The notes beneath the pieces were generated by a model. That model saw only the letters and a program-made list of their open reading frames with translations. It had not been told where the DNA came from and made no database searches. The translations under genes were made by a program, and so were the position numbers. Source: an uncultured virus (IMG/VR IMGVR_UViG_3300027851_000025) (taxonomy: Duplodnaviria > Heunggongvirae > Uroviricota > Caudoviricetes). From it: DNA of 64,000 bases. The stretch lies in the IMG/VR virus record IMGVR_UViG_3300027851_000025, one strand, 5' to 3'. Position 1 is the stretch's first letter, and every line of letters begins with the position of its first letter. Shown piece after piece: positions 3,093-63,940 of this stretch.

Positions 3093-3389
3093 ATGAAGAA
3101 GAAATACTGGACAGTTGAAGAGTCCATTGAAGAGGCAAAGAAGATCGGAATTGAAGTGAGCCGACCCACTCTAATCAAATGGATCAATGAATACAAACTC
3201 GGGTTTCAACTCGGTGGGAAGGGTGGTAAGTGGTACACCTATCCACAAAGATATATGAGGTACATCAATGGCGGAAGAACCCAGGCGGCGCAGGATCTCT
3301 ACTCAGACTCAGGAGACACTACAGGAGGAGCCCAAATCCCTGGCAACTCAGATGAGGGAAAGAAGGAGCAGGAGATCCCATCAAGTTGA
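3093..3389 (+). CDS. small excisionase/MerR-like HTH DNA-binding protein
   Basis: YWTVEE..IGIEVSRPTLIKWI..G.KW pattern; AGGAGG RBS. Confidence 0.6.
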   Translation: MKKKYWTVEESIEEAKKIGIEVSRPTLIKWINEYKLGFQLGGKGGKWYTYPQRYMRYINGGRTQAAQDLYSDSGDTTGGAQIPGNSDEGKKEQEIPSS

Positions 3390-25960: not shown

Positions 25961-26595
25961 TTCATTTCCTCCAATAGCGGGTTCCATAAATTGGGCACTT
26001 TAAAAGGTCTTGGTTGACCATGAAAAACAAGCACTGAGCAATCTTCCGGGATTCCGTTGACACAATGTCGCTTGAAAGAGTATACGCCAGGAAAAGCATC
26101 TTGAATCTTCCCGGGATTTACTTTGTACTTTTTCAATTGGACATTGACATAATCCTCATCCCCTCTCAGCCTTCTTTTCACTTCTTCCCATTTAAAATCT
26201 TTATACAATCTGGACCAATCACCATTCCATCCCAAAATTCCAGAGATTGTATTACGTGGATTCTTGAACGCCCGGATCATCCAAAACTCCTTTTCAGAAG
26301 AGGCTTGAATCAACCGAAATAGTCCATCAATATTTCCACGAATCATTGTATCAACCCCAACTGCTACCACCGGTCCCTGGAGCCGATATAACTCAACACA
26401 AGACCACCAACCCGGATAATTCTTTTCCAAAGGGATACAGGTTGCTCCGCTTATCGGCTCTGGATGATCGGTCAAACATATAAACTCATATTCTATTGTA
26501 GAATGCTTCTTGACCTGATAAGCCAAAGCCTCCACATGCTCGGGAAGATAGTCACCGCCAGATCGAAGAACGCATGCAAACTTTGGAACTGTCAT
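25957..26595 (-). CDS. glycosyltransferase (GT-A, GT8-like)
   Basis: CVLRSGG.Y, F.CLTD, GWWS..EL, GD, VFHG.P.P. Confidence 0.75.
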   Translation of the reverse strand: MTVPKFACVLRSGGDYLPEHVEALAYQVKKHSTIEYEFICLTDHPEPISGATCIPLEKNYPGWWSCVELYRLQGPVVAVGVDTMIRGNIDGLFRLIQASSEKEFWMIRAFKNPRNTISGILGWNGDWSRLYKDFKWEEVKRRLRGDEDYVNVQLKKYKVNPGKIQDAFPGVYSFKRHCVNGIPEDCSVLVFHGQPRPFKVPNLWNPLLEEMK

Positions 26596-27236
26596 TTCCA
26601 CATTCTCCGATGAACACAATTCCAAGGTTTATTCCTGCCATGAAACACAATGACCTTGGCATCTTTTGGGATGTATCTTTTACAATCCAGAACATATGAA
26701 TAAATCCCATTTACCTCATCCTGAATCTTTCTACAGCGAACTCCGGCATTATGGAGCTTATCCAAAAGGTAATTTTCATCTCCTCGAAACTTCTCGCTAT
26801 CTTTTTTGAAGTCGAACTCCTCCCACAACCATCTCCAATCCCCGTTCCACACCTGAACCCCATTGATTAGATCACGAGCGGGATCGTACGGGTGAAAGAA
26901 GGAACGAAGCATCCAAAACTCGTAAAAGTCTGCTTGCTCTGCCAGGTCAAAAAGCGGTCCAAGGTCAGAAACAAAGGCCGTATCTAGCCCAACGACTATT
27001 GTAGGTCCACAAAGTTTCCAAAGTTCACAACATGACCACCAACCTGGATAGTTCTTTTCCAGCGGGATAATCTCAATGCCAGTTGATGGAGTTGCTTCCA
27101 TCTTATCAGTCATACAAACAAACCGATAAGGGCGATCAGCATGTCGATCAGTTTGTGCCTTCAGCTGAAGGACATGGGAAGAATTATAAACTCCGCCGGA
27201 TCTCAATACACATCCTATGGTCGGAATTGGATTCAT
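26592..27236 (-). CDS. glycosyltransferase (GT-A, GT8-like), paralog of neighbour
   Basis: CVLRSGG.Y, F.CMTD, PLEKNYPGWWSC, GDE, VFHG..KPW. Confidence 0.75.
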   Translation of the reverse strand: MNPIPTIGCVLRSGGVYNSSHVLQLKAQTDRHADRPYRFVCMTDKMEATPSTGIEIIPLEKNYPGWWSCCELWKLCGPTIVVGLDTAFVSDLGPLFDLAEQADFYEFWMLRSFFHPYDPARDLINGVQVWNGDWRWLWEEFDFKKDSEKFRGDENYLLDKLHNAGVRCRKIQDEVNGIYSYVLDCKRYIPKDAKVIVFHGRNKPWNCVHRRMWK

Positions 27237-27445
27237 TCACCAATCTCCGTAAGTTTCCAATGCTTTGTTATCTCTTCAAGTTTCTGGTCAGAAGACTTCA
27301 CTAATTGTATTGTTTCAATATAAACAGGTTCCCCAACTTCGAGATATATAACTGCTTTGGTTGTATCTTTTGGAAGGTCTATTATTTTCTCAAGTTCTTT
27401 CCAAAAATCTGTAACCGAAACGTAATCTCCCTTTTTCATAGCCAC
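27233..27445 (-). CDS. hypothetical protein
   Basis: 70 aa coupled ORF. Confidence 0.5.
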   Translation of the reverse strand: MAMKKGDYVSVTDFWKELEKIIDLPKDTTKAVIYLEVGEPVYIETIQLVKSSDQKLEEITKHWKLTEIGE

Positions 27446-27933
27446 TCACTCTCCGGAACCATTCCAATTTTACTGGCTCTGCTCTTCCCTTTTATCATCC
27501 CCCATATCTCTCCGGCCGGGATATTCTTGGTAACAAAGGAACCGGCACAAACAAAGGCGTTCTCTCCGATCTCTATTCCAGGGGCCAGTACCGAACCAGA
27601 ACCTATCCTCACCCCTCTTCCAATGACCAACCTTTCAATCTTGGGGATGGTTCGACCATGATTGGCAATGTTTTTCTCATTAGTAGTGATCACACCAGGG
27701 CCAAAGAATACCATATCCCCAATTACAGCCTCAGCAGTAATGTGACACTGAGATTGAATTGTACAGCCCTGGCCAATCACCGTATCCCTTTCAATTACGA
27801 CGTTGTGGCCAATTACCGTATTCGCCCCAATTTTTACGTTTGTCCTGATAACGGAGAAGTGGAAAATCTTGGCAGAAAGATCAATATTACATCCGCCGTC
27901 AATCCAGGTCATGGGGCTTATAAATCCTGACAT
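27436..27933 (-). CDS. hexapeptide-repeat (LbH) sugar acetyltransferase
   Basis: Repeated IG.N..IG; FFGPGV..TN; AGSFVTKNIP. Confidence 0.85.
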   Translation of the reverse strand: MSGFISPMTWIDGGCNIDLSAKIFHFSVIRTNVKIGANTVIGHNVVIERDTVIGQGCTIQSQCHITAEAVIGDMVFFGPGVITTNEKNIANHGRTIPKIERLVIGRGVRIGSGSVLAPGIEIGENAFVCAGSFVTKNIPAGEIWGMIKGKSRASKIGMVPESEWL

Positions 27934-28583
27934 ACATCCTCCACCTTTACCATTGGGAATATTGTCAAAGCCGATCCTTCAGAAGCGTTCAAAATCTCCA
28001 ACCCAAGATTCTTGGCATCCCTGGCAATCTGGGGCCAATGCCGCATGAATCTCCCATACGGATTTGACAAGATTGCATTCCGCTTATCCCACTTTGGTTC
28101 ATAAAAATTGTGCCAATGGGTCTGAGCCTTCTTGTTGTGTTTGTCTTCCGGAAGTTTCATGTCAAACCCGATCAAAACCACCCGCTTTGCCCCTAACCAA
28201 TAAGCCAGATTGATTGCGCTGGCCCCACTATTTCCATTCCAAGATACAAACTTCCTGGACTTGCTTTCAATTCCTCCAGGAATGGATCTGCCTACATAAC
28301 GAACCCTCTGCCGGCGTCTGTCCAGGCTGGTTTCATAAGCACAAGTCACAATCAAGCCGCCATACTCGTTGATTTTTCCATTCTGTAACTCGTACCATCC
28401 TTTATCCCCGAACCAACAAACATCCACCCAAGGTCCGAGGGTATAAGCCTGATTTACGCCGATCACTCTATGTTGATGGATGAGCGACAAATCCACTTTC
28501 AACAGGGAAGGACCACCGCCCAGGATGAAGACGGTAGAACCAGGCCAAAGCCTGGGGATGGCCCAAAATCCCATGTCTTTCAC
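27918..28583 (-). CDS. Maf/DUF115/CstII-like putative CMP-sugar glycosyltransferase
   Basis: VFILGGGPSL, IGVN, NSG..AINLA..LGAKRVVLIGFDM, HW. Confidence 0.65.
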   Translation of the reverse strand: MKDMGFWAIPRLWPGSTVFILGGGPSLLKVDLSLIHQHRVIGVNQAYTLGPWVDVCWFGDKGWYELQNGKINEYGGLIVTCAYETSLDRRRQRVRYVGRSIPGGIESKSRKFVSWNGNSGASAINLAYWLGAKRVVLIGFDMKLPEDKHNKKAQTHWHNFYEPKWDKRNAILSNPYGRFMRHWPQIARDAKNLGLEILNASEGSALTIFPMVKVEDVCQDL

Positions 28584-37681: not shown

Positions 37682-39097
37682 TTAGATAATCTCGTCCTCG
37701 TCTTCAAGCTCATCATCCCCTTCCCCATCGCCTTCCTGAATGATCCGAGCCAAATGCTTTTCAATCTTCTCCATTATCCGCCATGTAGTGTCGTAATCCA
37801 TTCCCATAATGTCTTCCAGGAAAGAATCAACCGGGAGAATCTGCTGGCTGTTGGCGCTTTCCATATATTTGACCAGGGCTTCTGTTCTACCCTTTCCGAC
37901 CTCGACCTTTTCTTTCTCGGTCATGGAAGACAAATCAGGCCATTCGATCTCATATCCGTTCTTTGGCTCGGATAATACCCCGACTTCAATAAATCGATCT
38001 ATCACTGGTCGAATGATATTGGGTTCCACATGGGTGATTCTACGATGGTCACAAAGAGCTTCCCAGGATTCACTGTCCTGGCTACTTGCCAACTCCCCTC
38101 TTTCCGACCCTTCCAAAATCCGCTTTGGAATACCAGTAGCAATGGATATCATCTTGAGCTGAACCTCCACATGACTGGAAGGATCAGCCACCACAGGAGC
38201 AAGACTTTGAACATCGACGCCTTGGAGCTTCATATACCGTTCCAGATTATGAACATATTTCTGGATCTCTTCGGTCAGCTCCGATGCAATCTGGCTGATG
38301 TCAAAGTCTTCTTGAGCCTTGAATGCCATACCCGGGAAAGCCCCTTGCCAGAACATCTCAGCAGACCCCCCGACAATCAGATCCAGATTGAGGAGACGAT
38401 TGTACGCCCTTTCCAGTCGAGACAATCCATATACAGAAGACTCAAGGGGATTCTCCACCAGATGGAAGATACGCGAATGATGCGCCACAATCTCCATTGA
38501 AGCAACGGTATTTGGCGTAGTGGCCAGCTTCAATCCATAGTTTTTTACCAAACCATACCGAGCATCGTTCTTGTCGGTCACAAAATCTTTCAAAGTCGCA
38601 GAGCCTTCGGAAAAAGGCTGGAGATACAGGATATCAGAAATCTTACCATTCACTGGCTCGGATAGAGATACTGCCCCGTCTTTATATCCCACCAACAAAC
38701 AGGCATACCGACCAATGCCGGAAAGGATATCCCAACGAATCATATTGGCAAACAGTCCAAGTCTTTTCTGTAACTTGTCAAACTCGTCTTTCCAGATATC
38801 GTTCGGATCATCTGTAGCCCTGACTTCAGGCAGCTTCCTCCAACTCCCCTCTACCGGCTTCTCCACGATCTTGCCGGCAATGTCCTGACGACGATAGCGC
38901 AGATAATAGTCTTCAAAGGTAATCCGATCCAGGGAAGGATATCCAAGCGCCTCCCATACATCCCGCAGGCCACCAAAGGTCTTGCTATTCCCATACGACA
39001 TCCGGGAAGCTACAATGGACAGGGCATTGTTCAGCATTACTCTTCTCAGTTGATCTTGCTTCTCCCCGTCGGTCAAATGAACTACTTTACCTTTCAT
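37682..39097 (-). CDS. portal protein (DUF1073-like)
   Basis: Y.R..IA.KIV..P...W, GIP.RIL.G...G..AS..D; position after terminase. Confidence 0.88.
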   Translation of the reverse strand: MKGKVVHLTDGEKQDQLRRVMLNNALSIVASRMSYGNSKTFGGLRDVWEALGYPSLDRITFEDYYLRYRRQDIAGKIVEKPVEGSWRKLPEVRATDDPNDIWKDEFDKLQKRLGLFANMIRWDILSGIGRYACLLVGYKDGAVSLSEPVNGKISDILYLQPFSEGSATLKDFVTDKNDARYGLVKNYGLKLATTPNTVASMEIVAHHSRIFHLVENPLESSVYGLSRLERAYNRLLNLDLIVGGSAEMFWQGAFPGMAFKAQEDFDISQIASELTEEIQKYVHNLERYMKLQGVDVQSLAPVVADPSSHVEVQLKMISIATGIPKRILEGSERGELASSQDSESWEALCDHRRITHVEPNIIRPVIDRFIEVGVLSEPKNGYEIEWPDLSSMTEKEKVEVGKGRTEALVKYMESANSQQILPVDSFLEDIMGMDYDTTWRIMEKIEKHLARIIQEGDGEGDDELEDEDEII

Positions 39098-39855
39098 TTC
39101 CCTTCCTCCAGGGAGTTGCAATACAATCTGGCAGCAATCAAATCTTTATAGGTATTGATCTCGATTCCAGGCTCGTAAATTGTTTCTATCAGTTTGACCT
39201 TCATGCCCATCTCTACCGCCCTCAACTGCTCTAATCCCTCGGCAATCTCCCAAGAAGTAGAATTAGCATGAGCGAACACTTGCAGGGGCTCGTTTCTCCA
39301 GGCATATACCCCATAGTGATGATACCAATACCCCAAGCGGTCGATGCCAAAAGGAATAGGAGAGCGGGAGAAGTATCTGGCCTCCCCGTCTTTCCCCTTT
39401 ATGGCCTTCACCGTGTCTGAAGAAGCCCACAACTCAGATAAGGAAGTTTGGCGAATGGCCGGCGTAACCATATCCAGCTTTGGATTCTTTTCCAGTTCGG
39501 CAATCAATTCCTCTACCACTTCAGGCTCGACAAAGGGGAGATCACCCTGGAGATTAACCACTATTTCCATTGGATGCGAATCGTGAAAGTACTCCCACAT
39601 GGTCAAAGCTACCCTGTCAGATCCTGTCCTGCAACCTCCGGTCCTGACTACCTTCCCGCCAAACTTCAAAACTTCCCTTTCGACCAGAATACTGTCGGTA
39701 GAAACCACTAAGTTGGAGACTCCTTTGATCTGATGTGCCTTCTCCCATACTCTCTGAATAGTTGACTTCCCCCTGATGTCTGCCAAAGGTTTATTCGGAA
39801 GACGGGAAGACCCTATCCTGGCTGGAATGATCACCGTTACAGAAGTTGTATTCAT
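39094..39855 (-). CDS. kdsB: 3-deoxy-manno-octulosonate cytidylyltransferase (CMP-Kdo synthetase)
   Basis: IIPAR.GSSRLP.KPL.DI.GK, TGSDR, VNLQGD.P, YFSRSPIP, H.GVYA, E.LEQLR. Confidence 0.92.
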   Translation of the reverse strand: MNTTSVTVIIPARIGSSRLPNKPLADIRGKSTIQRVWEKAHQIKGVSNLVVSTDSILVEREVLKFGGKVVRTGGCRTGSDRVALTMWEYFHDSHPMEIVVNLQGDLPFVEPEVVEELIAELEKNPKLDMVTPAIRQTSLSELWASSDTVKAIKGKDGEARYFSRSPIPFGIDRLGYWYHHYGVYAWRNEPLQVFAHANSTSWEIAEGLEQLRAVEMGMKVKLIETIYEPGIEINTYKDLIAARLYCNSLEEGK

Positions 39856-52272: not shown

Positions 52273-52644
52273 ATGATTTCAGTAACAAAGAAGTTTTCAT
52301 TCAGTTATGCCCATCACCTCCCCGAATATGACGGAGACTGTCAAAGGGTCCATGGTCATAACAGCAATGTGGAAGTGGAGTTTTCGAACCAGGCCCCCAT
52401 AATGCCGGCGGCATACCCGGGAATGGTGGTTGATTTCAAAATCATTAAAAAGATTATTGACCCGATCATCGATGAATTGGATCATCACGATCTCAATCAG
52501 GTAATTGTCGGCAATCCAACTGCTGAAAACATTGCTCAATGGATTGCCGACAAGATTGGGAAAACCAGTATTGGGGCTGGTTTGGTCAGGGTCCAGGTAT
52601 CTGAAACCGACGATTCTTTTGCTACCTGGAGGAAGGGAAAATGA
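52273..52644 (+). CDS. queD: 6-carboxytetrahydropterin synthase
   Basis: F..AH.L..Y.G.C...HGH, GMV.DF, LDH..LN, PTAE, ET. Confidence 0.92.
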   Translation: MISVTKKFSFSYAHHLPEYDGDCQRVHGHNSNVEVEFSNQAPIMPAAYPGMVVDFKIIKKIIDPIIDELDHHDLNQVIVGNPTAENIAQWIADKIGKTSIGAGLVRVQVSETDDSFATWRKGK

Positions 52645-53321
52645 GAGTAAATGAAATCTTTTGTTCTTTGGATGGGGAAGTAAATCAATGGGGGCAGGGC
52701 AAACCAACTGTATTCATCCGGCTCCAGGGCTGCAATCTCAGGTGTCCTTACTGCGATACCAAACAGACATGGGATTTGGAAGGGGGAGGTGAATTATCAG
52801 TTTATGAAATTATGGAAAAAGTAAACTCCTCTGGATTTGGCAAGGTCACTATAACTGGAGGGGAGCCCCTTTTTAGTCCTGAATTTGTAATGTTGGCAAA
52901 GGCTCTGGTCGGAATGGGGATTCAAATATCAGTGGAGACGAATGGAACCATCCCGATTCCGGCTGGAGCATGGGCAGATAAAATCTGTTGGGTGGTTGAC
53001 TATAAATTGGAGCTGAAACAATCCCTTGGAGAGTTCGTATCCATCTTGGGGAGAAAACCAAGCATGTGGGTAAAAATCATTATTGGAGGATATGATGATT
53101 TTTACAAGGGGATGGAAATGGTAGAGGATATCACCTTCCTTTTGCCTGATTGTAATTTTGCTTTCAGCCCCATGTTTGGGAAAACCAGTGAGGAACAGAT
53201 TTTTACCTGGATGATCGAGAATAGATATAAACACCCGACTATATTGAATAAAGTGGTGGTGAATACCCAGCTCCATAAAATTATTTTTCCAAAAGGCGAA
53301 AAAAACTTTGTTTTGCCTTAA
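52641..53321 (+). CDS. queE: 7-carboxy-7-deazaguanine synthase (radical SAM)
   Basis: EIF.SL.GE, FIRL.GCNLRC.YCDT, ITGGEP, VETNGT, QLHK. Confidence 0.92.
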   Translation: MRVNEIFCSLDGEVNQWGQGKPTVFIRLQGCNLRCPYCDTKQTWDLEGGGELSVYEIMEKVNSSGFGKVTITGGEPLFSPEFVMLAKALVGMGIQISVETNGTIPIPAGAWADKICWVVDYKLELKQSLGEFVSILGRKPSMWVKIIIGGYDDFYKGMEMVEDITFLLPDCNFAFSPMFGKTSEEQIFTWMIENRYKHPTILNKVVVNTQLHKIIFPKGEKNFVLP

Positions 53322-53346
53322 CGATATATTGTTTTCCAGGTATAAT
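53318..53346 (+). promoter_or_regulatory. phage promoter TTAACG-N17-TATAAT
   Basis: CCTTAACGA..CCAGGTATAAT. Confidence 0.82.
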
Positions 53347-53419
53347 CTAACATAAGCAAGACAGGGGAAGGTCCCCAACCAGATCAATTCGATCAACCAA
53401 AAGTACAAAGGAGAACCAC

Positions 53420-54175
53420 ATGGCCAAGAAGAAAGCAGCAAAAGCCCCAGAAGTCCCCCTGGAAGCCCTTCAGGCAGTAGCAATGGACTTCAATTCCTTC
53501 ATGAAGTTTGCCGAGGGAGATGAGATCCCGGTAGATATGGCATACGACGATCTGCTCGGCGAGCTCACCGAATGTGCTGCCCAGTTGGAAGAGTCCGATA
53601 CCATCCAGCCCGGCACCGCCGAAACCCTGACCGCCTTGGGGTTAGAGTTTGCCGCCACTGTCGCTGAGGGCGAAGCCCAGGCCGATGATGATGCCGATGA
53701 TGATGCCGATGATGATGCCGATGATGATGCCGATGATGATGCCGATGATGATGCCGATGATGATGCCGAGCCCGACAATTCGGAGCTGGTTGCCAAGGTG
53801 AACAAGGCTCGCAAGATCGACGATCTTCTGGTTATTGCCAAGGAAGAGCGGATTGCAGTTCCCCCTCCCTTCCGGAAGGACATCAAGAAGCTGAAGGAAT
53901 ATCTGGTCAAGAAACTGGAAGAAGGCCCCAAGGAGAAACCGGCCAAGAAGGAGAAACCGGCCAAGAAGGAGAAGGCGCCGCGCGGCCCGTCGGTCACGAA
54001 TATGATCTCCATGGAAATCTGCAAGAACGAGAAGGCATCAACAGAAGACATCGCCAAGGTCTTGAAAGAGAACGGAATGGTATTCAGCGACTCTACCATC
54101 AACACCACGAAGGCCGGCGTTCTGAAGGTTCTGAATTGCCTGAAAGAACTCGGTCGACTCAAGCCCATCAAGTAA
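53420..54175 (+). CDS. acidic N-terminal / basic C-terminal protein of unknown function
   Basis: Own promoter and terminator; (ADDD)7 and KEKPAK repeats. Confidence 0.7.
   Translation: MAKKKAAKAPEVPLEALQAVAMDFNSFMKFAEGDEIPVDMAYDDLLGELTECAAQLEESDTIQPGTAETLTALGLEFAATVAEGEAQADDDADDDADDDADDDADDDADDDADDDAEPDNSELVAKVNKARKIDDLLVIAKEERIAVPPPFRKDIKKLKEYLVKKLEEGPKEKPAKKEKPAKKEKAPRGPSVTNMISMEICKNEKASTEDIAKVLKENGMVFSDSTINTTKAGVLKVLNCLKELGRLKPIK
53681..53764 (+). repeat. perfect tandem repeat (GCCGATGATGAT)x7
   Basis: Read directly from the sequence. Confidence 0.95.
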
Positions 54176-54196
54176 TTCCCGACAAACTATATATTG

Positions 54197-54227
54197 AAAG
54201 GGGATGGAGGTTTCCATCCCTTTTTTT
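54197..54227 (+). terminator. intrinsic terminator
   Basis: GGGATGGA-GGTT-TCCATCCC-T7. Confidence 0.88.
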
Positions 54228-54238
54228 GGAGGATCTGT

Positions 54239-54901
54239 ATGAAAGCTATTCTCGCTTTGTCAGGAGGAATGGACTCCGCTACGGTTCTTGCCTGGCTTCG
54301 GAAAAATGGCTATGAAGTGGAATGTTTTTCTTTCTCCTATGGTTCCAAGCATAATCATTGGGAAGGAAATGCTGCCCAGAAAGTAGCAGCATTTTATGGA
54401 ATGGAACTGCAGGAATCGATTGATCTGTCAAACATCACAAAACAATTCAAATCCAATCTCCTGAAAGGCCAGGGCGAAATCCCGGAAGGCCATTATCAGG
54501 ATGAGACCATGTCGCAGACGGTGGTACCCGGAAGAAACATCATTTTTCTTTCTATCTGCGCCGGCCTTGCCTGGTCAAAAGGCGCATCCAAGATTGCCAT
54601 AGGGATTCATCAGGGAGATCATACCATTTACCCCGACTGCAGGGTAGAGTTCTACGAAGAGATGTCTAAGGCGATCTCCACCGGTACAGATGGAAATGTG
54701 GATGAGATCATCGCCCCCTTCCTCCACACCGACAAAGCAGGCATACTCGCTTGGGGCCTGAAAAACGGGGTTCCATATCACCTGACCCGGACTTGCTATA
54801 AAGACCAGCCATTGTCGTGCGGGAAATGTGGATCTTGCGTCGAGCGCCTGGAAGCCTTTGCTTCGGTCGGGATTAAAGATCCGATTGAATATGCAAAGTA
54901 G
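54239..54901 (+). CDS. queC: 7-cyano-7-deazaguanine synthase
   Basis: LSGGMDS, YG..H, VPGRN, YPDCR, TCY..CGKCGSCVER. Confidence 0.95.
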   Translation: MKAILALSGGMDSATVLAWLRKNGYEVECFSFSYGSKHNHWEGNAAQKVAAFYGMELQESIDLSNITKQFKSNLLKGQGEIPEGHYQDETMSQTVVPGRNIIFLSICAGLAWSKGASKIAIGIHQGDHTIYPDCRVEFYEEMSKAISTGTDGNVDEIIAPFLHTDKAGILAWGLKNGVPYHLTRTCYKDQPLSCGKCGSCVERLEAFASVGIKDPIEYAK

Positions 54902-54909
54902 AATAATTT

Positions 54910-55134
54910 TTATTTTTTATGCAAGCCATAAACTGGATGAGTATAGTTATTAATCCAGTTTATGAGGTCTAAGTCTGCCGATTGAGTTTTAGTATAAGCC
55001 GAACGAATTGGATGTTCTTTGGGTATTTTGTTGATATGTTTATGAATAAGACCCAAAGCTTCTTCTAATTTTGATTCGGCTTTGGAAAAATCTAAAAGTT
55101 GTTCATCTGAAAAAGTAAGCATTTTAGCCTCCAT
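54910..55134 (-). CDS. small AT-rich protein antisense to the que cluster
   Basis: 74-aa ORF filling the intergenic gap. Confidence 0.5.
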   Translation of the reverse strand: MEAKMLTFSDEQLLDFSKAESKLEEALGLIHKHINKIPKEHPIRSAYTKTQSADLDLINWINNYTHPVYGLHKK

Positions 55135-55193
55135 AGAGATTGGTTTAATGTATTTAATTATTTTCCGGCTGAAATTGCAAGAGGATTCAACAT

Positions 55194-55415
55194 ATGCAAA
55201 GTAGAAGGGAGTCGCTGGCAGAAGCCTCCTTGAATATCCTCACTGGATTTCTGGTATCCTGGCTGATCACCCCTCCCATCCTGCAGATGTTTGGATACTC
55301 AATATCCATGAACAAGGCGTTTGGCGTCACTGTAATCTATACGGTGTTTTCATTTCTGCGTTCTTACATTTGGCGTAGGATTTTCAACAGGAGAGTAAAA
55401 TGGCAAAAAAGATAG
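55194..55415 (+). CDS. small two-helix membrane protein
   Basis: QS...SL.E...N...G..S..RSY..RR.FN. Confidence 0.65.
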   Translation: MQSRRESLAEASLNILTGFLVSWLITPPILQMFGYSISMNKAFGVTVIYTVFSFLRSYIWRRIFNRRVKWQKR

Positions 55416-56278
55416 TCCTTTCAAACGAACAGATTCAGGAGCGGTGTGCCGACATAGCCAATGACCTGCCAGCTCACAAAAACTTCTATGGGGTGCCAAG
55501 GGGAGGAATCGCTCCTGCTTATTTACTGGCCGGCATGTCCGATGGCTTTGTGGTTTCGAATCCGGAAGAAGCAGATTTCTTTGTCGATGATCTTATCGAC
55601 TCCGGAAGAACCCGGGCAGAATATCGCGAGAGATTCCCCTTCACCCCATTCATCTTTTTGTATGAAAAGATCGATTCCTCCCAGTGGTTCGTATTTCCTT
55701 GGGAAGTTGACAATTCCGGCAATGATACTTCTGGCGAAGACATCTTTATCCGACTCCTGGAGTTCATCGGTGAAGATCCGAGCAGGGAAGGGCTTTTGGC
55801 TACTCCCAAGAGGATGATGCGGGCCTGGACTCATTGGACTCAGGGATACGGCAAATCTCCGAAAGATGTCTTCACTTCATTCGAAGATGGTGCGGAAGAC
55901 TATGACCAGATGCTTCTGGTCGATCCTATTCCATTCTTCTCCCATTGCGAGCACCATCTGGCCATATTCTTTGGGGAGATCCACATCGCCTATATCCCGC
56001 ACAAGAAGATTGCCGGCCTGTCAAAGTTCATCCGGCTGGCAAGGATCTTCTCTCAGCGCCTGCAAGTCCAGGAAAGACTGACGGTTCAGATTGCCAACGC
56101 CATCTTCAACAGCGGCCTGGAAACCCCGGGAGTCGGGGTATTCATCAAGGCCCGGCACATGTGTATGGAATCCAGGGGGGTTTCCACTTTTGGGACCTAC
56201 ACCAAAACCTCGGCTCTCCGGGGGGTATTTATGAAGCCGGAGGTTCGGGAAGAGTTTTTCAACATGATCAAGTTGTAA
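55400..56278 (+). CDS. folE: GTP cyclohydrolase I with N-terminal phosphoribosyltransferase-like domain
   Basis: N-terminal GVPRGG, VDDLIDSG.T, FPWE; C-terminal REGL..TP.R, SHCEHH, GLSK, LQVQERLT, H.CM..RG. Confidence 0.92.
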   Translation: MAKKIVLSNEQIQERCADIANDLPAHKNFYGVPRGGIAPAYLLAGMSDGFVVSNPEEADFFVDDLIDSGRTRAEYRERFPFTPFIFLYEKIDSSQWFVFPWEVDNSGNDTSGEDIFIRLLEFIGEDPSREGLLATPKRMMRAWTHWTQGYGKSPKDVFTSFEDGAEDYDQMLLVDPIPFFSHCEHHLAIFFGEIHIAYIPHKKIAGLSKFIRLARIFSQRLQVQERLTVQIANAIFNSGLETPGVGVFIKARHMCMESRGVSTFGTYTKTSALRGVFMKPEVREEFFNMIKL

Positions 56279-56311
56279 TCCATTTTCCAATTTAACCAAA
56301 AGAGGAAATAA

Positions 56312-56842
56312 ATGAAAAAGTATCTGTGGCCGGCACTGTACCTGTCCAGCATTCTTCTTGGAAACTTCTTTGTCATGTGGTTTGGGATCGTCAAGTTTGC
56401 CGGCCTGACCTTCCCTGCCGGCGTTATCTTTGTCGGTCTGACCTTCTCCTTCCGAGATTTTGTTCAACGCCAATGGGGAGACTACGCCTGCTGGATCTGG
56501 ATGGGCCTGGCCACAGTCATTACCTTCTTCCTCAACCGGCAAATTGCCATCGCCTCGGTCACTGCCTTTTTTGTTTCAGAGCTGGTCGACTGGGCTTGTT
56601 TCAAATACTTGAAGTTTTCATTCAGGAAGAGGATATACATCTCAAACCTGTTCTCCTGCCCATTGGATTCTATAATCTTCGTTACCCTGGCATTTGGATG
56701 GTTTTGGCCGGCGATCTGGGGTCAGGCTCTGATCAAGTATCTTTCCGGGTTATTGGTCCTACCTTTCCTTGGTTTGAAGGATCGCATTCCTGCCGACAAT
56801 AACTATACCGACATCTTCCCTTCTTACGGAGTTGGAAAGTGA
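56312..56842 (+). CDS. yhhQ: VUT-family queuosine precursor transporter-like membrane protein
   Basis: N.., G.TF..RD..Q, IA.AS..AF..SE..D, SN..S..LDS..F...AFG. Confidence 0.75.
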   Translation: MKKYLWPALYLSSILLGNFFVMWFGIVKFAGLTFPAGVIFVGLTFSFRDFVQRQWGDYACWIWMGLATVITFFLNRQIAIASVTAFFVSELVDWACFKYLKFSFRKRIYISNLFSCPLDSIIFVTLAFGWFWPAIWGQALIKYLSGLLVLPFLGLKDRIPADNNYTDIFPSYGVGK

Positions 56843-57049
56843 AAGTTTATCTTGCCGGGGTTCCAGGGGGGTTCTCCAGGAGATTGTAAGAGGGAGAGGG
56901 AACTCTCCATTAAGTTCAAAAGAAGACTACATTCTTACTATCACATCAAAATAACAAAAAGTAATCTGATCAATCCAAATGAAAATATATCTAGCATCGG
57001 GATATTCTGTAATGAATACCAAAGGCAGAGAGAGAGAGATGCTAAGTAG
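56839..57049 (+). pseudogene. mini-module 1, frameshifted at G6 (56866-56871)
   Basis: MKVYLAGVPGG stops early; +1 frame gives SPGDCKRERE..KRRLHSYYH. Confidence 0.7.
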
Positions 57050-57167
57050 ATTTGGGGGCGCGTATAAAAGATTAGTATCCTATTATGATTTGTCAAGAGG
57101 CAATAAAATACTTAATATAATAAATCTGAATACGAATGAAAATATATCTTGCCGGAAATACCCCTGA
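56979..57167 (+). CDS. mini-module 2, intact
   Basis: MKIYLASG..RERE..KRLVSYY; (AG)6 tract. Confidence 0.75.
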   Translation: MKIYLASGYSVMNTKGREREMLSRFGGAYKRLVSYYDLSRGNKILNIINLNTNENISCRKYP

Positions 57168-57318
57168 CAGAGAGAGAGAGGAGAAAATTCTTTTACAGAA
57201 AAACCTGACCAGAAAAAGACTTTTGGCTTTCCATTACCTTCTCTGTGATAAGAATGTAAAATTAATGTTTGATCTATGGACAAATGAAAATAAACTTTGC
57301 AGGAACTCCAGGAACTAG
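57136..57318 (+). CDS. mini-module 3, intact
   Basis: MKIYLAGN..RERE..KRLLAFHY; (AG)6 tract. Confidence 0.75.
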   Translation: MKIYLAGNTPDREREEKILLQKNLTRKRLLAFHYLLCDKNVKLMFDLWTNENKLCRNSRN

Positions 57319-57419
57319 AGGGAGAGAGAGATTGGCAAAAGATTTTCAATAAGCGCCTGCTCTCCTTCTGGAACTATACAAATAATGAATTTAACATCCC
57401 ATTTGCTTTTGAGGAATCA
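57284..57419 (+). pseudogene. mini-module 4, frameshifted at (GA)5; its +1 frame is continuous with the DpdA-like ORF
   Basis: MKINFAGTPGTRGRER stops at 57352; +1 frame gives DWQKIFNKRLLSFW...MKNKIDIFLDSGAF. Confidence 0.72.
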
Positions 57420-58313
57420 ATGAAAAACAAAATTGACATCTTTCTCGACTCCGGGGCCTTTTCCGCATTCACTCAGAATGTTCAAATCGACATCGAAGAA
57501 TACATTGCCTTCATCAAGGAACACCAGTCGAATCTGGAAGTATATGCCAATCTAGATGTTATAGGTTCGCCGAAAGGGACCTGGATGAATCAGAAGATCA
57601 TGGAGCGTGCCGGCCTGAATCCCCTCCCCTGTTTCCACTACGGGGAGGATCTGAAGTGGCTCCACAGATATCTGAATACCGGGTATGAGTATATTGCCCT
57701 TGGAGGCATGGTTCCGATCTCGACCCGTGATCTCATTAAGTGGTTGGATACCCTCTTTGCAGAGCACTTGACCGACTCCAATGGTTTCCCGATAATCAAG
57801 GTCCATGGCTTCGGCTTGACCAGCTTGACTCTCATGCTTCGCTACCCTTGGTTCAGTGTCGACAGTACTTCCTGGGTTATGACCGGTAGAATGGGCTCTA
57901 TCTACGTTCCCAAGCGAACCAAGGGGCAATGGTCATATCATGAGGAAGCGGTGAAAATAGCCGTATCTACGCGCTCTCCGAGCAAGAAGGATGCCAACCA
58001 GCATATCTCCACCCTATCCCCGAAAAGAAGGCAGGTCATCCTCGATTACTTGGACGAAAAAGGATATGCCCTTGGGTCCTCCAGGTTTCGGAAAGAGTCC
58101 GAGAAATACGAGCTCAAAGAGAATGAACGATGGGATGGCAAGGCTGTAAATGGAAAGAGGGGCGTGGAGGAAGTCATCGAACCGGGAATCAGCAATGACT
58201 ACAAACTCAGGGACGAGATGAACATTATCTATTTCCTCGATCTGGAAAAGTCCTTTCCGCCGTATCCCCGGCAATTTCAGGTCAAGAAGAGAGTGGGGTT
58301 GAAAGGACTATGA
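57420..58313 (+). CDS. dpdA: TGT/DpdA-like 7-deazaguanine transglycosylase core
   Basis: FLDSGAFS, LDVIG, P.FH.GE, ALGG, VHGFG.T, SVDSTSW; GAGG RBS; adjacent preQ0 genes. Confidence 0.75.
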   Translation: MKNKIDIFLDSGAFSAFTQNVQIDIEEYIAFIKEHQSNLEVYANLDVIGSPKGTWMNQKIMERAGLNPLPCFHYGEDLKWLHRYLNTGYEYIALGGMVPISTRDLIKWLDTLFAEHLTDSNGFPIIKVHGFGLTSLTLMLRYPWFSVDSTSWVMTGRMGSIYVPKRTKGQWSYHEEAVKIAVSTRSPSKKDANQHISTLSPKRRQVILDYLDEKGYALGSSRFRKESEKYELKENERWDGKAVNGKRGVEEVIEPGISNDYKLRDEMNIIYFLDLEKSFPPYPRQFQVKKRVGLKGL

Positions 58314-58495
58314 AAGTATTTCTTGCGACTTGGGTTTTGGAGCCTTCCCAGGGTCAGACCTTGACAAAGATGGAGGCTGGCAATAGGCTTTTGAGTTACT
58401 TCCATACCAAGCAGAAAGAAGAGGTCTTTTCCGTATATTGTAGACGAGGTGTAAATGAAGATATATCTGGCAGGAAACGGGGCAATGCCAAGTGA
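58310..58495 (+). CDS. mini-module 5, intact
   Basis: MKVFLAT...NRLLSYFH. Confidence 0.7.
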   Translation: MKVFLATWVLEPSQGQTLTKMEAGNRLLSYFHTKQKEEVFSVYCRRGVNEDISGRKRGNAK

Positions 58496-58650
58496 AGAGA
58501 GAGAGAGTATATTCAGAAAAAGAATGCTTCTTTATTCATCAGCGCCTCTTCTCTTTCTTTGAAATTCAGCCTGGAAGATTTGCCCACTCTCAATGGAATT
58601 GGATAATCCAAAACAAGGGGAAAATTCATGAAGAGGATCGAGGATGTTAA
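58455..58650 (+). pseudogene. mini-module 6, frameshifted at (AG)6 (58496-58507)
   Basis: MKIYLAGNGAMPSEERE; +1 frame gives VYSEKECFFIHQRLFSFFE. Confidence 0.7.
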
Positions 58651-59218
58651 AACTGGGATGGTAAGAAGAAAAAACGTTACTTCCTATTTCGAAAGGGAAC
58701 TTACCAAAAGAGGGAAAGGATATATCAAAGCTATTGGACCATCATTTATCGAAGAAGAATTAACCCCAAAACAAATACATGATCTCAATCTTCCGACAAA
58801 TAGAACCTTGAGAAATAATTCAAACAGTCTTGGTTTGACCTGGCAGTTTAAGAATGAAATAACCAGAATCAGCAGACTCGTTGAAATAAGAGAATATGGG
58901 GATAATTATTTGAAATCACCATCTATTTATAATGGTGATATTGATAAAGCGTATGATTTCTTTAGTCCACATATTTTCCTGGTAGTGGAATATGATAATG
59001 AAAATAACCCATGTAAATTTAGTAACTTAGTAGAAGTAGGAAGTATCCCAAAGAAAATGTTTTACTTTTCCGAATCAAAAGGGAATCGAAATCGAATAAA
59101 TATAAAAGGATTCTCCAGATATTTTACTATGTATAAAATGAGCAAACACCGGAGTGGTATTTTGAATCGGCCAGATGTAATCGATCAACTGGATATTATC
59201 CTTTCCGGTAAAGAATGA
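58628..59218 (+). CDS. AT-rich hypothetical protein, possible PD-(D/E)xK/DUF559-like nuclease
   Basis: YDFF....FLVVEYD pattern only. Confidence 0.4.
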   Translation: MKRIEDVKTGMVRRKNVTSYFERELTKRGKGYIKAIGPSFIEEELTPKQIHDLNLPTNRTLRNNSNSLGLTWQFKNEITRISRLVEIREYGDNYLKSPSIYNGDIDKAYDFFSPHIFLVVEYDNENNPCKFSNLVEVGSIPKKMFYFSESKGNRNRINIKGFSRYFTMYKMSKHRSGILNRPDVIDQLDIILSGKE

Positions 59219-59388
59219 AAATCTATCTAGCCAGCACCGCTCCAGGAACGGAAGGAACTGAAAAAAACCAGTTGATCTCCATCCCAATTCCAAAGCGCCT
59301 GCTCTCTTATCACCATATCAAATTCAATCAGTTCGGAACCCGGGTCGTCTTTAATGCCTTAACCACAAGGAGGAACAAAACCAAATGA
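59215..59388 (+). CDS. mini-module 7, intact (57 aa, not in ORF track)
   Basis: MKIYLASTAPGT...KRLLSYHH; ATGA overlaps at both ends. Confidence 0.75.
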   Translation: MKIYLASTAPGTEGTEKNQLISIPIPKRLLSYHHIKFNQFGTRVVFNALTTRRNKTK

Positions 59389-60392
59389 AAATCAATCTGT
59401 CGCAATTCAAGGAAGTTCTTGGCAAGGTCAAGCCAGGCTTGTCAAGCGGTAAGGAGACTACAGAGCAGTCCGACTGCTTCGTATTCCACAAGAACCGGAT
59501 CTTCACCTACAACGACGAGATTTCAGTCAGCTGCCCCTGGGAATCCCCGATTGAAGGTGCCGTCCCGAGTAAGGAGCTTCTGGCCCTGGTCAATAAGTTG
59601 TCGGCTGAAGAAGTAGAAATGAACATGGAGAATGGGGAGCTCAGGATCAAGTCAGGCCGATCCAAGTCAGGGCTGGTAGTTCAAGCAGACATCCACATGC
59701 CCATCGACGAGATCGTGATGCCAAAGAAGTTTAGTCCACTTCCCAAGAACTTCACTGCCGGCCTGAAGTCATGCGTCTTCTCTGCTTCCAACGATTTCAG
59801 TTTTCCGATCCTCACGGTCGTCCATTGCCTGGATTCTTGGATGGAGTCTACGGATAACGATCGGGCAACCAGATGGGAGTTGAGCAAACAGTGGTTCAAG
59901 AAGCCGGTCCTGATCCCGGTCGTCGCCGCCAAGGCTTTGTCTGGGTATTCAGATGTAAAAGCCTATCACGACGATGGGAGTTGGGTCCACTTCCAGATTG
60001 GGGATTCCTTGGTATTCAGCTGCCGGACCATTGATGGGGATTTCCCTGACATTGGAGGATACTTCAAGACCGATGGGTATGAGCTGGAGTTCCCTAGCTC
60101 CACCCTGGATATCCTTAGCAGGGCCGGTATATTCGTGGAAGCCGACAACTCTGAGAAGCTGGTCCACGTCTCGGTGAATGAGAAGGGGGTTATGGAGATC
60201 AAGGCTCAGTCGGATCATGGTTGGTATAATGAAACCATTCGATTGAAAGCAGCGCCAAAAACAGCCCTGGCATTCTCCATTCATCCCGACTATCTGTCAC
60301 AGATACTCAGCTCCACCGGGAAAGCCACTATTGGTGAAAAGCTGGTATTGTTTGAGACAGAGAACTTCAAACATGTAATTGCCTTGGAATAG
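59385..60392 (+). CDS. dnaN: DNA polymerase III beta sliding clamp-like protein
   Basis: 335 aa; P.LT.V, STD..R, RTIDG.FP; three-domain beta-clamp pattern. Confidence 0.75.
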   Translation: MKINLSQFKEVLGKVKPGLSSGKETTEQSDCFVFHKNRIFTYNDEISVSCPWESPIEGAVPSKELLALVNKLSAEEVEMNMENGELRIKSGRSKSGLVVQADIHMPIDEIVMPKKFSPLPKNFTAGLKSCVFSASNDFSFPILTVVHCLDSWMESTDNDRATRWELSKQWFKKPVLIPVVAAKALSGYSDVKAYHDDGSWVHFQIGDSLVFSCRTIDGDFPDIGGYFKTDGYELEFPSSTLDILSRAGIFVEADNSEKLVHVSVNEKGVMEIKAQSDHGWYNETIRLKAAPKTALAFSIHPDYLSQILSSTGKATIGEKLVLFETENFKHVIALE

Positions 60393-60720: not shown

Positions 60721-61250
60721 GATCGATCGTGAGTTTATTCCGGATTGAACAATTAGCAGGGGAGGCAGAAAAAGTCCTCCCCTGCGATATCGAAAAGATT
60801 CAGATCCTCAATACTAAAGAGGAAGTGGACAAATATCTTCTTGAGGTATTGAGGTTAAAGCCAAAGATCATTGCCTTTGATTATCATGGGGTATCCGCCG
60901 GCGGGAAAATCAATATAGTTTGCTGTTCCATGTGCTGGCAGTTGATCAGATCCGTTTCCTGGCAATGGGTTAATACCGACCCCAAACTATTTAGAAAGTT
61001 CCTTGAAAGTAATGATATTGGGAAAACAAGTCAGTATCATAAGCAAGAAATAGAATGGTCGGAAAATAGGTTTAGAAGGACTACAATAAACAACTTAATT
61101 GAATATGATTATCCAGGTATAATAAAGAGGGAGAGAAGGGTTAATGGAAATATGCCAATAGAAAGAATACTGAAAAGTATGGCATTAAACAGTCTATCCA
61201 AATACAAAGTAATAGCCGATCAAATAATAGAACTGGGGATTATAAAATGA
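60606..61250 (+). CDS. degenerate 3'-5' exonuclease-like protein (start uncertain)
   Basis: IAFDY..I.C.S..L....I.K resembles a PolA-type exonuclease but acidic residues appear incomplete. Confidence 0.4.
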   Translation: MGKRNGEVAENEWIEDAGYSQGIDSRVSCRPSQRSLLLRSIVSLFRIEQLAGEAEKVLPCDIEKIQILNTKEEVDKYLLEVLRLKPKIIAFDYHGVSAGGKINIVCCSMCWQLIRSVSWQWVNTDPKLFRKFLESNDIGKTSQYHKQEIEWSENRFRRTTINNLIEYDYPGIIKRERRVNGNMPIERILKSMALNSLSKYKVIADQIIELGIIK

Positions 61251-63940
61251 GTTTTTGCCACCTTCATGTCCATAATGAATACTCAGTTCTTGATGGGGTC
61301 GGAACCTCAAAACAATATGCCACAATCGCAAAAGAACTCGGCCAGACCCATCTTGCCTTAACCAATCATGGGAATGTCGATGGCGCAATAGAACATCAAA
61401 AACAATGCCTTGAAATAGGGATAGAACCGATCATTGGGGCAGAGATGTATCTGGTTCCGGATCTTTCCATTAAAGAAAAGGGAGAAACTCGCTATCACAT
61501 GACCCTGCTGGTGGAGAATCAAACAGGCTGGCGGAACCTCCTACAGCTCTTGACGATCGCCAATATAGATGGGTTTTATCACAGGCCCAGGATCGACCAT
61601 AAGACCTTGATGAAACATCTGGAGGGCCTGGTTGTTATGAGTGCCTGCTCCGCTTCCTTTATCCATCACAAACCTCATACTAAATTCCTCCGGGATTATA
61701 TTGATAGGATCGGAAATAACAGAGTATTCTTGGAAGTAATGCCGCACAAGATCCCGGAGCAGATTGAAACGAATAAGTTGGCCATTTCTCTTTCAAAGAA
61801 ACTCGGAATCCAAGTAGTGGCCACTAATGACTGTCATTATCCAACCTCCAAAGCCACAAAACATCAAGAAGTCCTCCTTGCCATCCAAACCAAAAAGAAG
61901 TGGTCAGACTCCAGCAGATGGAAGTTTAATTGTGATGGCCTTTTCCTCCGGTCAGAACAGGAAATGATTGAAGCATTCCAGGAACAAGATTGTCTATCTG
62001 ATGGCGAAATAAAGAAGGCGATCAGGAGGACAATGACCGTTGCCAACATCTGCCAATCATTCCGAATAGAAAAACAAGAAGTATATCTTCCAAGCATTAA
62101 GAACTTCCCGACAGAAGAAGATGAATTGATCTTTCTGGAAAACTTGGTTTATAGAGGGCTCAAGCGGCGCATCGGGGATCTGCCATACGACGATCTAAAA
62201 GAATACAAAGAAAGAATCGAAATGGAGATGAAGCTGATTATCTCCAAGAAGTTTGTTCGATATTTTCTGATTGTTTGGGATCTTATCAAATGGTGTAAGA
62301 AGAACAATATTATGACCGGCCCAGGGAGAGGTAGCGTCGGTGGATCATTAGTTGCCTATCTTCTATTTATTACCGACTGTGATCCGCTTATATACGGCAC
62401 GGAGTTCTTTCGATTTGTATCTGAGGACCGGAATGACCTCCCGGACATCGATATGGACTTTGAGGATATCAAAAGGCAGGAGGTCAGGAAGTACCTGTCT
62501 GATAAATACGGGGAGTTCAATGTTTCTGGCCTTTCAAACTTCTTGACGATGAAGGGGAAAGGGGTTCTCAGGGACGTTTCCAGAGTATTCGACATCCCCC
62601 TCAAAGAAGTCGATGTAGCGGCGAAAGCCATGGTTGATGGGGAAGATGGGGAGGAGATTTCAAAGTCTTTCAAAGAGGTTGGAGAATGCCGGCGCTTTGG
62701 TCACAAGTATCCAGAAGTGGTCGAGATATGTAAATCAATAGAGGGTCAGATTAGGGGGTATGGCCAACATGCTGCAGGGGTTTGTATTTCCGAAAAGGAC
62801 TTGAGAGAAGGATATAATTGCAATCTTGTTACCCGGTCCAATACCATCGTGGCAAACTGGGATATGCGGAATGCGGAGTATTGCGGTTTGATGAAACTCG
62901 ATATTCTTGGATTGAGTGCCTTAACCATCCTCAATGAATGCCGACGATTGGTAAAGCAAAATCACGATATTGATATAGACTACAAAGCAATTTCATTTGA
63001 TGACAAAAAGGTATTCCAGGAAATCTCCAATGGTCATACTGTTGGGGCATTTCAGATAGGATCTTCTGGCCTGACCAATTATTGTAAAGAGCTTGGGGTT
63101 GATAACTTTGCTATGCTCTATGCAGTGACTGCCCTCTGGAGGCCAGGACCATTGCAGTCCGGGATGACCGAACTCTATGCCAAGAGAAAGAGGGGACAAG
63201 TTAAGATCCAAAAGATCCATCCAATATTCGATAAAATTACTGAAGAGACTTTTGGTGTAATTGTTTATCAGGAACAGGTAATGAAGGTGGTTAATCAACT
63301 GGCAGGAATCCCAATGTCCACCTGTAACAAGATCAGAAAGGTCATGGGAAAGAGTATGGGTCATATTGCCTTTGACAAATACAAAGAAGAATTTCTCCAG
63401 GGATGTAAAAATAACGAAATAAACTGGAAGAAGGCAAACCAAATCTGGGACATGATGTCGAAGTTTGGTGGATACGGATTCAATCTTTCACACTCTGTTG
63501 AATACTCGATGATTACCTATTGGGATATGTGGAGCAAGACATATTATCCCAATGAGTTCTTGGCTGCTTCTCTGACCCTTGGGGATAAGACCAAAAATAT
63601 TATATATATGCAGGAAGCAAAAAGACTGGGTCTCAAGATCAATCTTCCGAAAATAGGCAGATCCGAGGCGGTTAGATGGAATTGTGATGACAAAGGTAAT
63701 TTATATGCCCCTTTCATTTCCATAAACGGCGTTGGAGATGCTACGGCAGAGAAGATTGCTGAGGCAAAAGTAGAGAATAAAAAGAGAAGGGGATTTTTCA
63801 ATCATTTGAAACAAAGCGAGAGGATTCCTGGAGTTGATAAAAATGTAATTGATATCCTCACCAAAATAAAGGCTTTTGATCCTAACCATGAAACCACAAC
63901 CCAAGACCTGAGAGAGTTTAGATCATATTTTATTTTTTAA
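61247..63940 (+). CDS. dnaE: DNA polymerase III alpha subunit
   Basis: HLHVH..YS.LDG (PHP), GPGRGS, PDIDMD, HAAG, KLDILGL, RPGP, YQEQ, YGFN.SH. Confidence 0.96.
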   Translation: MSFCHLHVHNEYSVLDGVGTSKQYATIAKELGQTHLALTNHGNVDGAIEHQKQCLEIGIEPIIGAEMYLVPDLSIKEKGETRYHMTLLVENQTGWRNLLQLLTIANIDGFYHRPRIDHKTLMKHLEGLVVMSACSASFIHHKPHTKFLRDYIDRIGNNRVFLEVMPHKIPEQIETNKLAISLSKKLGIQVVATNDCHYPTSKATKHQEVLLAIQTKKKWSDSSRWKFNCDGLFLRSEQEMIEAFQEQDCLSDGEIKKAIRRTMTVANICQSFRIEKQEVYLPSIKNFPTEEDELIFLENLVYRGLKRRIGDLPYDDLKEYKERIEMEMKLIISKKFVRYFLIVWDLIKWCKKNNIMTGPGRGSVGGSLVAYLLFITDCDPLIYGTEFFRFVSEDRNDLPDIDMDFEDIKRQEVRKYLSDKYGEFNVSGLSNFLTMKGKGVLRDVSRVFDIPLKEVDVAAKAMVDGEDGEEISKSFKEVGECRRFGHKYPEVVEICKSIEGQIRGYGQHAAGVCISEKDLREGYNCNLVTRSNTIVANWDMRNAEYCGLMKLDILGLSALTILNECRRLVKQNHDIDIDYKAISFDDKKVFQEISNGHTVGAFQIGSSGLTNYCKELGVDNFAMLYAVTALWRPGPLQSGMTELYAKRKRGQVKIQKIHPIFDKITEETFGVIVYQEQVMKVVNQLAGIPMSTCNKIRKVMGKSMGHIAFDKYKEEFLQGCKNNEINWKKANQIWDMMSKFGGYGFNLSHSVEYSMITYWDMWSKTYYPNEFLAASLTLGDKTKNIIYMQEAKRLGLKINLPKIGRSEAVRWNCDDKGNLYAPFISINGVGDATAEKIAEAKVENKKRRGFFNHLKQSERIPGVDKNVIDILTKIKAFDPNHETTTQDLREFRSYFIF

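Follow-up and report, generated by a model that had tools for sequence, protein, structure and literature searches.

A phage preQ0 cluster with an array of small modules

The window analyzed here, that is, the whole 64,000-nucleotide stretch, is a tailed-phage contig with terminase, portal, capsid, tail tube, and lysozyme genes, and all of it was recovered in a freshwater metagenome run. An array of small modules and the core of a DpdA enzyme sit inside a preQ0 gene cluster (QueD, QueE-like, QueC, FolE, and YhhQ, with a sliding clamp), whose supply genes (52273..56842, plus strand) are all upstream of the array. The association with FolE, QueD, QueE, and QueC known for DpdA1 is thus found here. 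The features are as follows.

52273-52644, plus strand: QueD (Pfam PTPS)
52641-53321, plus strand: QueE-like radical SAM protein (Pfam Radical_SAM)
54194-54901, plus strand: QueC (Pfam QueC)
55400-56278, plus strand: FolE (Pfam GTP_cyclohydroI)
56312-56842, plus strand: YhhQ transporter (Pfam Vut_1)
56839..57049, plus strand: unit 1, VPGG-type DpdA N-terminal module, GTG start, OFF
56866-56871, plus strand: G6 tract of unit 1
56979..57167, plus strand: unit 2, SGYS-type free module, ON; (AG)6 at 57027-57038 plus one A
57136..57318, plus strand: unit 3, NTPD-type free module, ON; (AG)6 at 57169-57180
57284..57419, plus strand: unit 4, TPG-type module, OFF at (GA)5, 57322-57331
57420..58313, plus strand: DpdA catalytic core, barrel strands 3 to 8, with its own ATG behind GAGGA (phrog_887, E of 5e-59)
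58310..58495, plus strand: unit 5, ATW-type free module, ON, no tract
58455..58650, plus strand: unit 6, NGAM-type free module, OFF at (AG)6, 58496-58507
58628..59218, plus strand: ORF of 196 aa, no significant Pfam or PHROG match
59215..59388, plus strand: unit 7, TAPG-type free module, ON; A7 at 59261-59267
59385..60392, plus strand: sliding-clamp gene (phrog_947), which closes the array with an ATGA overlap with unit 7

No match to QueF, ArcS, or Gat was found among the 53 window ORFs scanned, and dPreQ0 is therefore the expected base, following the grouping by accompanying genes given in the accessible part of PMC6884629.

The seven units share the start motif MK(I/V)(Y/F/N)(L/F)A, at positions 56839, 56979, 57136, 57284, 58310, 58455, and 59215. 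Units 2, 3, 5, and 7 are intact. In units 1, 4, and 6 the MKxYL/FAG start lies in one frame and the second motif (RLHSY, RLLSF, and RLFSF, respectively) in the +1 frame, with each break spanning a tract, G6, (GA)5, and (AG)6. An earlier note made from the letters alone had described these three breaks and listed the tracts, all of which were found in place, that of unit 2 reading as six AG units followed by one A. Its remark that the long conserved genes are unshifted also held, as QueD, QueC, FolE, YhhQ, the DpdA core, the clamp, and Pol III alpha are each one open frame. The second half of unit 4 is in frame with the core, so that its ON allele would be a single-chain DpdA, and unit 5 is probably constitutive. 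The junctions between units 1 and 2, 2 and 3, 3 and 4, 5 and 6, and 6 and the next gene are long +1 overlaps. The window has five dinucleotide tracts of at least five units, and four of the five are inside modules, which occupy about 1% of its length (P of about 7e-8 in a post-hoc test). The free modules gave no match to any Pfam or PHROGs family.

Several neighboring genes have peculiarities of their own. The 196-aa ORF had an Atlas feature score of 0.91 to a cluster in which 51% of the members carry PF24579, with a TM of about 0.5, below the bar, a hint of a PD-(D/E)XK or restriction-endonuclease-like fold. FolE carries some 116 additional N-terminal residues ahead of its GTP cyclohydrolase domain (55400-55750). 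Between QueE and QueC (53420-54175) there is an acidic protein of 251 aa in which DDAD is repeated in tandem, and indel variation in a similar acidic repeat was seen in six relatives (L045 and L181-L185). Pol III alpha (61247-63940) has only 897 aa, and the phage also encodes clamp, clamp-loader-like, DnaB-like, and RecA-like genes; with replication genes of its own, tract slippage may depend on the phage replisome. Sulfotransferase-like, hexapeptide acyltransferase, MptE-like, and cytidylyltransferase genes among the virion genes (25292-28583 and 39094-39855) suggest virion glycosylation or other surface chemistry. MAG contigs with related loci carry organism names from many phyla.

Repeat tracts, frame breaks, and length alleles

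We surveyed 200 related loci belonging to 146 lineages, two of the search sets being the best 80 of 436 and the best 80 of 377 matches. Searching with a profile built from intact modules, we obtained 304 distinct module sequences, of which 242 are intact, 3 have an in-frame stop, and 59 are frameshifted, and at least one scored module was present in 102 of the 146 lineages sampled. Breaks go with tracts. Taking as a tract an AG run of at least 8 nt or a G/C run of at least 6, we found one in 54 of the 59 broken modules versus 55 of the 242 intact ones (odds ratio of 37, or 43 with one representative per lineage). Among the lineage representatives, 47 of 94 tract-bearing modules are broken versus 4 of 175 without a tract, and the break pattern recurs in 33 of the 146 lineages. 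AG tracts of ON modules center on six units (22 cases) and those of OFF modules on five (21 cases), with further OFF modules at seven and eight. Repeats of (AG)5 or longer number 72 in 20.6 kb of scored modules versus 20 in 659 kb of flanks; 19 of these 20 lie, on inspection, in modules missed by the score or in module tails, and the other is at a contig edge. The DpdA core is without such a tract and almost never broken: of 153 core motif hits, 139 continue in frame to the second catalytic motif and 11 are open for at least 179 residues, the rest being cut by a contig end (one) or short (two).

The module types differ in how often they are found OFF. The VPGG type of unit 1 is OFF in 15 of 26 copies, 24 of them with a tract, and the TPG type of unit 4 in 14 of 26. 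The ATW type of unit 5 has 74 copies, of which 5 have a tract, 3 are OFF, and none is fused to the core. For the NGAM type of unit 6 there was no ON copy among four; viral contigs had no exact match to 26-base stretches of units 4 and 6, and the second half of unit 6, used as a protein query, returned a single weak locus.

Some details of the earlier reading had to be amended. The A7 of unit 7 does not seem to be a switch, since none of 14 modules in which a run of A7/T7 or longer is the sole run is broken. One extra repeat unit does restore the frame at the dinucleotide tracts, but the proposed loss of one G in unit 1 (G5) does not fit, and its ON allele is probably G8, because the family reads PGGGS at this site. 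The shared +1 correction is true of the three window breaks and fails as a rule of the family, in which 39 of 59 frameshifts need +1 and 20 need -1.

The window tracts were checked on assembled contigs, which drop rare alleles. Run X1, which may be the window's own source, had no differences from the window (contig depths of 82.5 and 98); the unit 6 tract is spanned unchanged in X2 and in X3, which also spans that of unit 4 unchanged, at depths of 2 to 6 in both runs, and X1 alone spans G6 and the tracts of units 2 and 3. As the contigs of the three runs agree letter for letter wherever they bridge a tract, the breaks appear to be biological and not due to assembly, and long-read deletion error was dropped as their cause on the same agreement. 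Repeats are error-prone and this evidence comes from contigs rather than raw reads, but with identity at depths of 82 to 98 in X1, and again in X2 and X3 where bridged, and with a pattern that recurs across 33 lineages and spares the core, sequencing or assembly error is almost certainly not the explanation. In X1, a 309-base piece of the core (57733-58041) had a depth of 141 versus 82 to 98 on either side, with adapter-bearing tips flanking it.

No length variants of the tracts of this genotype were found in the contigs of X1, X2, X3, or L121 wherever a tract was bridged. Related genomes, which the earlier note had proposed to compare, do show different ON/OFF patterns. Over 5,090 aligned nt, 8 substitutions and 3 indels separate L013 from L160; one indel, an additional GA, turns a TAPG module (the type of unit 7) ON through its AG tract, a second, an additional AT, turns the next module OFF, and the third is inside an NVG module that has decayed in L160. 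L040 and L175 have no mismatches in 2,853 nt, their sole difference being G8 versus G9. Loci L028-L031 present C7, C8, or C9, G8 or G9, and AG runs of 11, 17, 17, and 19 nt, and at the site of the unit 1 tract L029-L031 have either G8 (OFF) or G9 (ON). In run X4, relatives of the window have one more AG in the unit 3 tract and, in the unit 6 tract, one AG fewer (depth of 44) or one more (depth of 2.8); the latter, a minor ON allele of unit 6 in one contig, may belong to another strain or be an error. Most near-identical pairs show no tract difference, some of them being the same data filed twice or tract-less. One X4 contig of a relative (record 24) stops exactly at 57331, the end of the unit 4 tract, which is what a branch between length alleles would cause.

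The type of tract also varies within and between module types. The NTPD type has AG repeats in the window (unit 3) and a C7-C9 run in L029-L031, the NGAM type in L028 and L031 is broken at a C run instead of AG, and other modules have an AT tract after the second motif. These different solutions point to repeated gain of mutability. Arg-Glu stretches are encoded by perfect repeats in 39 of 60 RER and 33 of 48 ERE motifs of ON modules, and in 0 of 20 and 0 of 41 in neighboring long genes. All 59 breaks can be opened by a single lesion, and in only one of the 59 is the frame beyond the second motif short. Around this motif, pN/pS was 0.18 for ON-ON (25 pairs), 0.28 for ON-OFF (12 pairs), and 0.07 for OFF-OFF comparisons (11 pairs), the pairs being non-independent, so that purifying selection is apparent and the further decay of broken units that was looked for was not seen.

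These are the traits of a contingency locus: a perfect repeat early in the coding region sets the frame, whole-unit length alleles occur in both directions among near-identical genomes (L013/L160, L040/L175, L028-L031, and X4), and OFF alleles are revertible without further decay, as judged from 11 non-independent pairs. Those of programmed frameshifting (conserved site, fixed direction, invariant DNA) were not found. Two-way breaks, lack of further decay, and tract differences in near-identical genomes argue for slippage of DNA rather than a programmed +1 shift. The slipped-strand ON/OFF switching proposed for the window is thus supported at the family level, at which we consider it very probable; tracts of five to six units are short, which is a point against it.

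Modules as a quarter of the DpdA barrel

L005, a natural single-chain relative, gave a model with a pLDDT of 86 (62-row alignment), in which strands span residues 2 to 5 and 30 to 33 and the Asp-Ser-Gly strand residues 52 to 57, with the module corresponding to strands 1 and 2. The model aligns to TGT from residue 1 (Z of 17.6, rmsd of 3.4, 246 residues aligned), and a unit 2 profile matched the N terminus of full-length DpdA with an hhalign probability of 95.9. From this fold, the TGT alignment, and the profile match, each unit is the first quarter of the barrel; in other words, strands 1 and 2 of DpdA, which is a 7-deazaguanine DNA transglycosylase, are what the units copy.

The window core has intact DSGAF and SVDS motifs, and its D10 and D148 are invariant in 23 cores. 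The TGT-type eight-stranded barrel with two catalytic aspartates that is characteristic of DpdA1 is therefore recognizable (phrog_887 and the TGT match above), although not in a single polypeptide, as the window head is out of frame. Alone, the core has a predicted fold with a pLDDT of 87. A Met stands just before strand 3 in 98 of 110 in-group lineages, and about 45 of the 110 in-group cores are without an in-frame head, in a crude classification in which L069, L078, and L099 seem to have been placed wrongly. In the 24 out-group lineages the enzyme is single-chain and free modules are absent. Four module types were never found fused to the core: ATW, TAPG (37 copies), SGYS (31), and NTPD (14). 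In a looser set of 351 modules, 168 have no scored next module in reach and 48 run in frame into the core. A point missed in the earlier note is that fusion to the enzyme is impossible for most modules, which probably work in trans on a core with a start of its own.

A modelled complex of the core with free unit 2 scored 0.91, with 0.00 for the best of three controls; the mark applied to this score is reached by 116 of 157 solved pairs and 2 of 215 mismatched pairs. Runs showed at least 98% contact agreement and a partner pLDDT of at least 91, and the two strands of unit 2 were placed against the first and last strands of the core (residues 6 to 9 and 145 to 148), closing the barrel. This docking supports binding without demonstrating it, because halves of a split fold can pass by their likeness to solved barrels. 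Trans assembly of modules with the core is, on this modelling, probable. A PDB sequence search found no DpdA relative (two matches, E of 1.9), and bacterial DpdA was absent among the 50 structure matches listed. In bacterial DpdA, according to the accessible part of PMC10164549, the loops after strands 1 and 2 lie beside the active site and shape or extend the surface that binds DNA.

Recombination also swaps and removes modules. L001 is 97.6% identical to the window up to 56858, has another, single fused head, and rejoins the window at 57420, the joints being at module starts; it is also without unit 6 and the 196-aa ORF, which were lost together. L028-L031 differ in module content as well.

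Two further variations of the enzyme were observed among the relatives. The DpdA core of L001 has an in-frame insertion of some 320 residues (~3040-4000 of that locus) that the window is without; its first residue is Cys and its last Asn, directly before the SVDS catalytic motif, and these ends suggest a possible intein. A second, shorter DpdA-like paralogue is found near the main core in L006, L032, L073, L127, L163, L167, L173, and L189, and in L006 it is broken directly after the DSGA motif.

A candidate contingency locus, its alternatives, and its relatives

Taken as a whole, the likely explanation is a phage contingency locus acting on a split DNA transglycosylase. The core (strands 3 to 8, with both catalytic aspartates) would be translated from its own start, and the missing strand-helix-strand-helix quarter would be supplied by any of several modules of ~50 residues, mostly separate coupled genes whose products would bind the core in trans, although unit 4 could also fuse. 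Perfect AG, G, C, or AT tracts would gain or lose one unit at replication, so that progeny would differ in their sets of ON modules, with units 2, 3, 5, and 7 ON and 1, 4, and 6 OFF in the present genotype. Recombination at the shared start motif may reshuffle the module set more slowly. The modules might alter which guanines, or how many, become preQ0, possibly as a form of bet-hedging between hosts that restrict DNA without the modification and hosts that restrict DNA with it.

That they change the target sequence we hold only tentatively, somewhat short of an even chance. The same caution applies to a possible combinatorial epigenetic switchboard, in which interchangeable quarter-barrel subunits would each have their own guanine context, giving mixed 7-deazaguanine patterns per burst and up to 32 states from the five window tracts. 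DpdA of phage CAjan modifies GA and GGC, as reported in the accessible part of PMC7544227, and since this related enzyme does so, the AG and G tracts may, speculatively and by analogy, themselves be substrates that feed back on their own slippage.

If switching is real but sets only the level of DpdA activity, through redundant heads or inhibitor modules, and not the target sequence, the array would have its precedent in T2 agt, described in the available text as a plain ON/OFF of modification (10.1101/2025.10.21.683753), and the tract-poor ATW type, ON in 71 of 74 copies, could be a housekeeping head. We regard this as unlikely, since one switch in the core would suffice for it, yet the core is tractless and almost never broken, and at least seven distinct module types persist in distant phages, with differences in the loops that follow strands 1 and 2. 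Another version, in which the array is a store of cassettes that work only once recombined onto the core, so that tracts matter only in fused modules, is suggested by the head swap of L001 with its joints at module starts, by the differing module content of L028-L031, and by the 48 of 351 modules in frame with the core. This version is quite improbable given that four types are never fused, that some 45 of 110 cores are headless, that free ON modules are under purifying selection, and that unit 2, of the never-fused SGYS type, docks in the model.

Neutral decay would have dispensable duplicates breaking at repeats that an Arg-Glu motif happens to create, and the shortness of the tracts, their invariance in the window genotype, the three modules with in-frame stops, the decayed NVG module of L160, and frequent module loss all agree with it. 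It is nonetheless very improbable: perfect repeats are far above what codon use would give, different tract types arose within one module type, all 59 lesions are single with a pN/pS of 0.07 for OFF alleles, and ON and OFF alternate between near-identical genomes. Programmed +1 (or -2) ribosomal or transcriptional shifting through breaks and overlaps, yielding a polyprotein, would account for the +1 direction of all three window breaks, of the five window overlaps, and of 39 of the 59 family breaks. However, 20 of the 59 need the opposite shift and tract length varies in the DNA. The junctions of the looser set comprise 66 ordinary ATGA stops, 52 +1 overlaps, and only 2 in-frame overlaps, counts that argue against a programmed polyprotein; a +1 polyprotein through all junctions was dropped on the 66 stops versus the 2 in-frame overlaps, and programmed shifting in general is hardly credible, although some low-level leak-through may occur. 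The contingency locus on a split enzyme is accordingly our preferred reading.

Multispecific phage C5 methyltransferases are among the nearest known systems. Phage contingency loci have already been published. In the T2/T4 agt gene, A-runs flip the frame reversibly and hedge between opposing host restriction systems, according to the available part of a recent preprint (Gomez, Barrick and Waters, bioRxiv 10.1101/2025.10.21.683753). As far as this text goes, agt shares with the array a simple repeat in a phage DNA-modification gene and differs in having mononucleotide runs, one intact enzyme, and all-or-none loss, whereas here mostly dinucleotide tracts in several small subunit genes, with the core spared, allow combinations. 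The available text of the preprint has no occurrence of DpdA, deazaguanine, queuine, or dinucleotide, and phage-wide repeat tables in its supplement could bear on this. Campylobacter phages are reported (2021) to have polyG (G7-G11) phase variation acting on host recognition, which is likewise repeat driven and in a phage gene but, unlike the present array, without a split enzyme. In bacterial phasevarions (PMC7383803 and PMC7394358), methyltransferases are reported to be phase variable and hsdS specificity genes switchable, so that repeats or recombination similarly alter how a DNA-modifying enzyme is expressed or the part of it that sets specificity. The bacterial enzymes are methyltransferases whose target-recognition domains are separate, whereas in this array it is one quarter of a transglycosylase's catalytic barrel that is switched.

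Among known enzymes, the single-chain phage DpdA1 of CAjan, 9g, and JG054 shares with the window core PHROG 887, the TGT-like barrel, the Asp-Ser-Gly motif, and the second Asp, and the spacing of D10 and D148 resembles that of Asp63 and Asp206 in CAjan (PMC7544227, accessible part). Pseudomonas phage JG054 (Queuovirinae) has the same folE-dpdA-clamp-polymerase order as the window, but its dpdA is annotated as one gene and no modules are encoded between folE and the clamp. The 237 matches to cultured phages were all <60% identical, and unit 5 had no match among 50,697 phage records. A literature search covering titles and the openings of abstracts, mostly outside subscription papers, found no switchable split-DpdA array, nor was one found in the main texts, as far as accessible, of PMC10516641, PMC7544227, and PMC6884629, so that such an array is apparently unpublished.

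The system is real and widespread and joins two known themes, the contingency locus and DpdA1. There is also a warning for annotation, as DpdA genes that lack a head, and modules that look like "pseudogenes", are probably functional. With a natural set of exchangeable heads for a single core, what determines the sequence specificity of phage DpdA can be tested directly, and base-exchange enzymes that can be retargeted could follow. The array belongs to a widespread uncultured clade, judging from the proportion of sampled lineages with at least one scored module, and, if the proposed reading is true, bet-hedging in phages would include, besides the ON/OFF control of single genes, an array of several switches by which a DNA-modifying enzyme is rewired.
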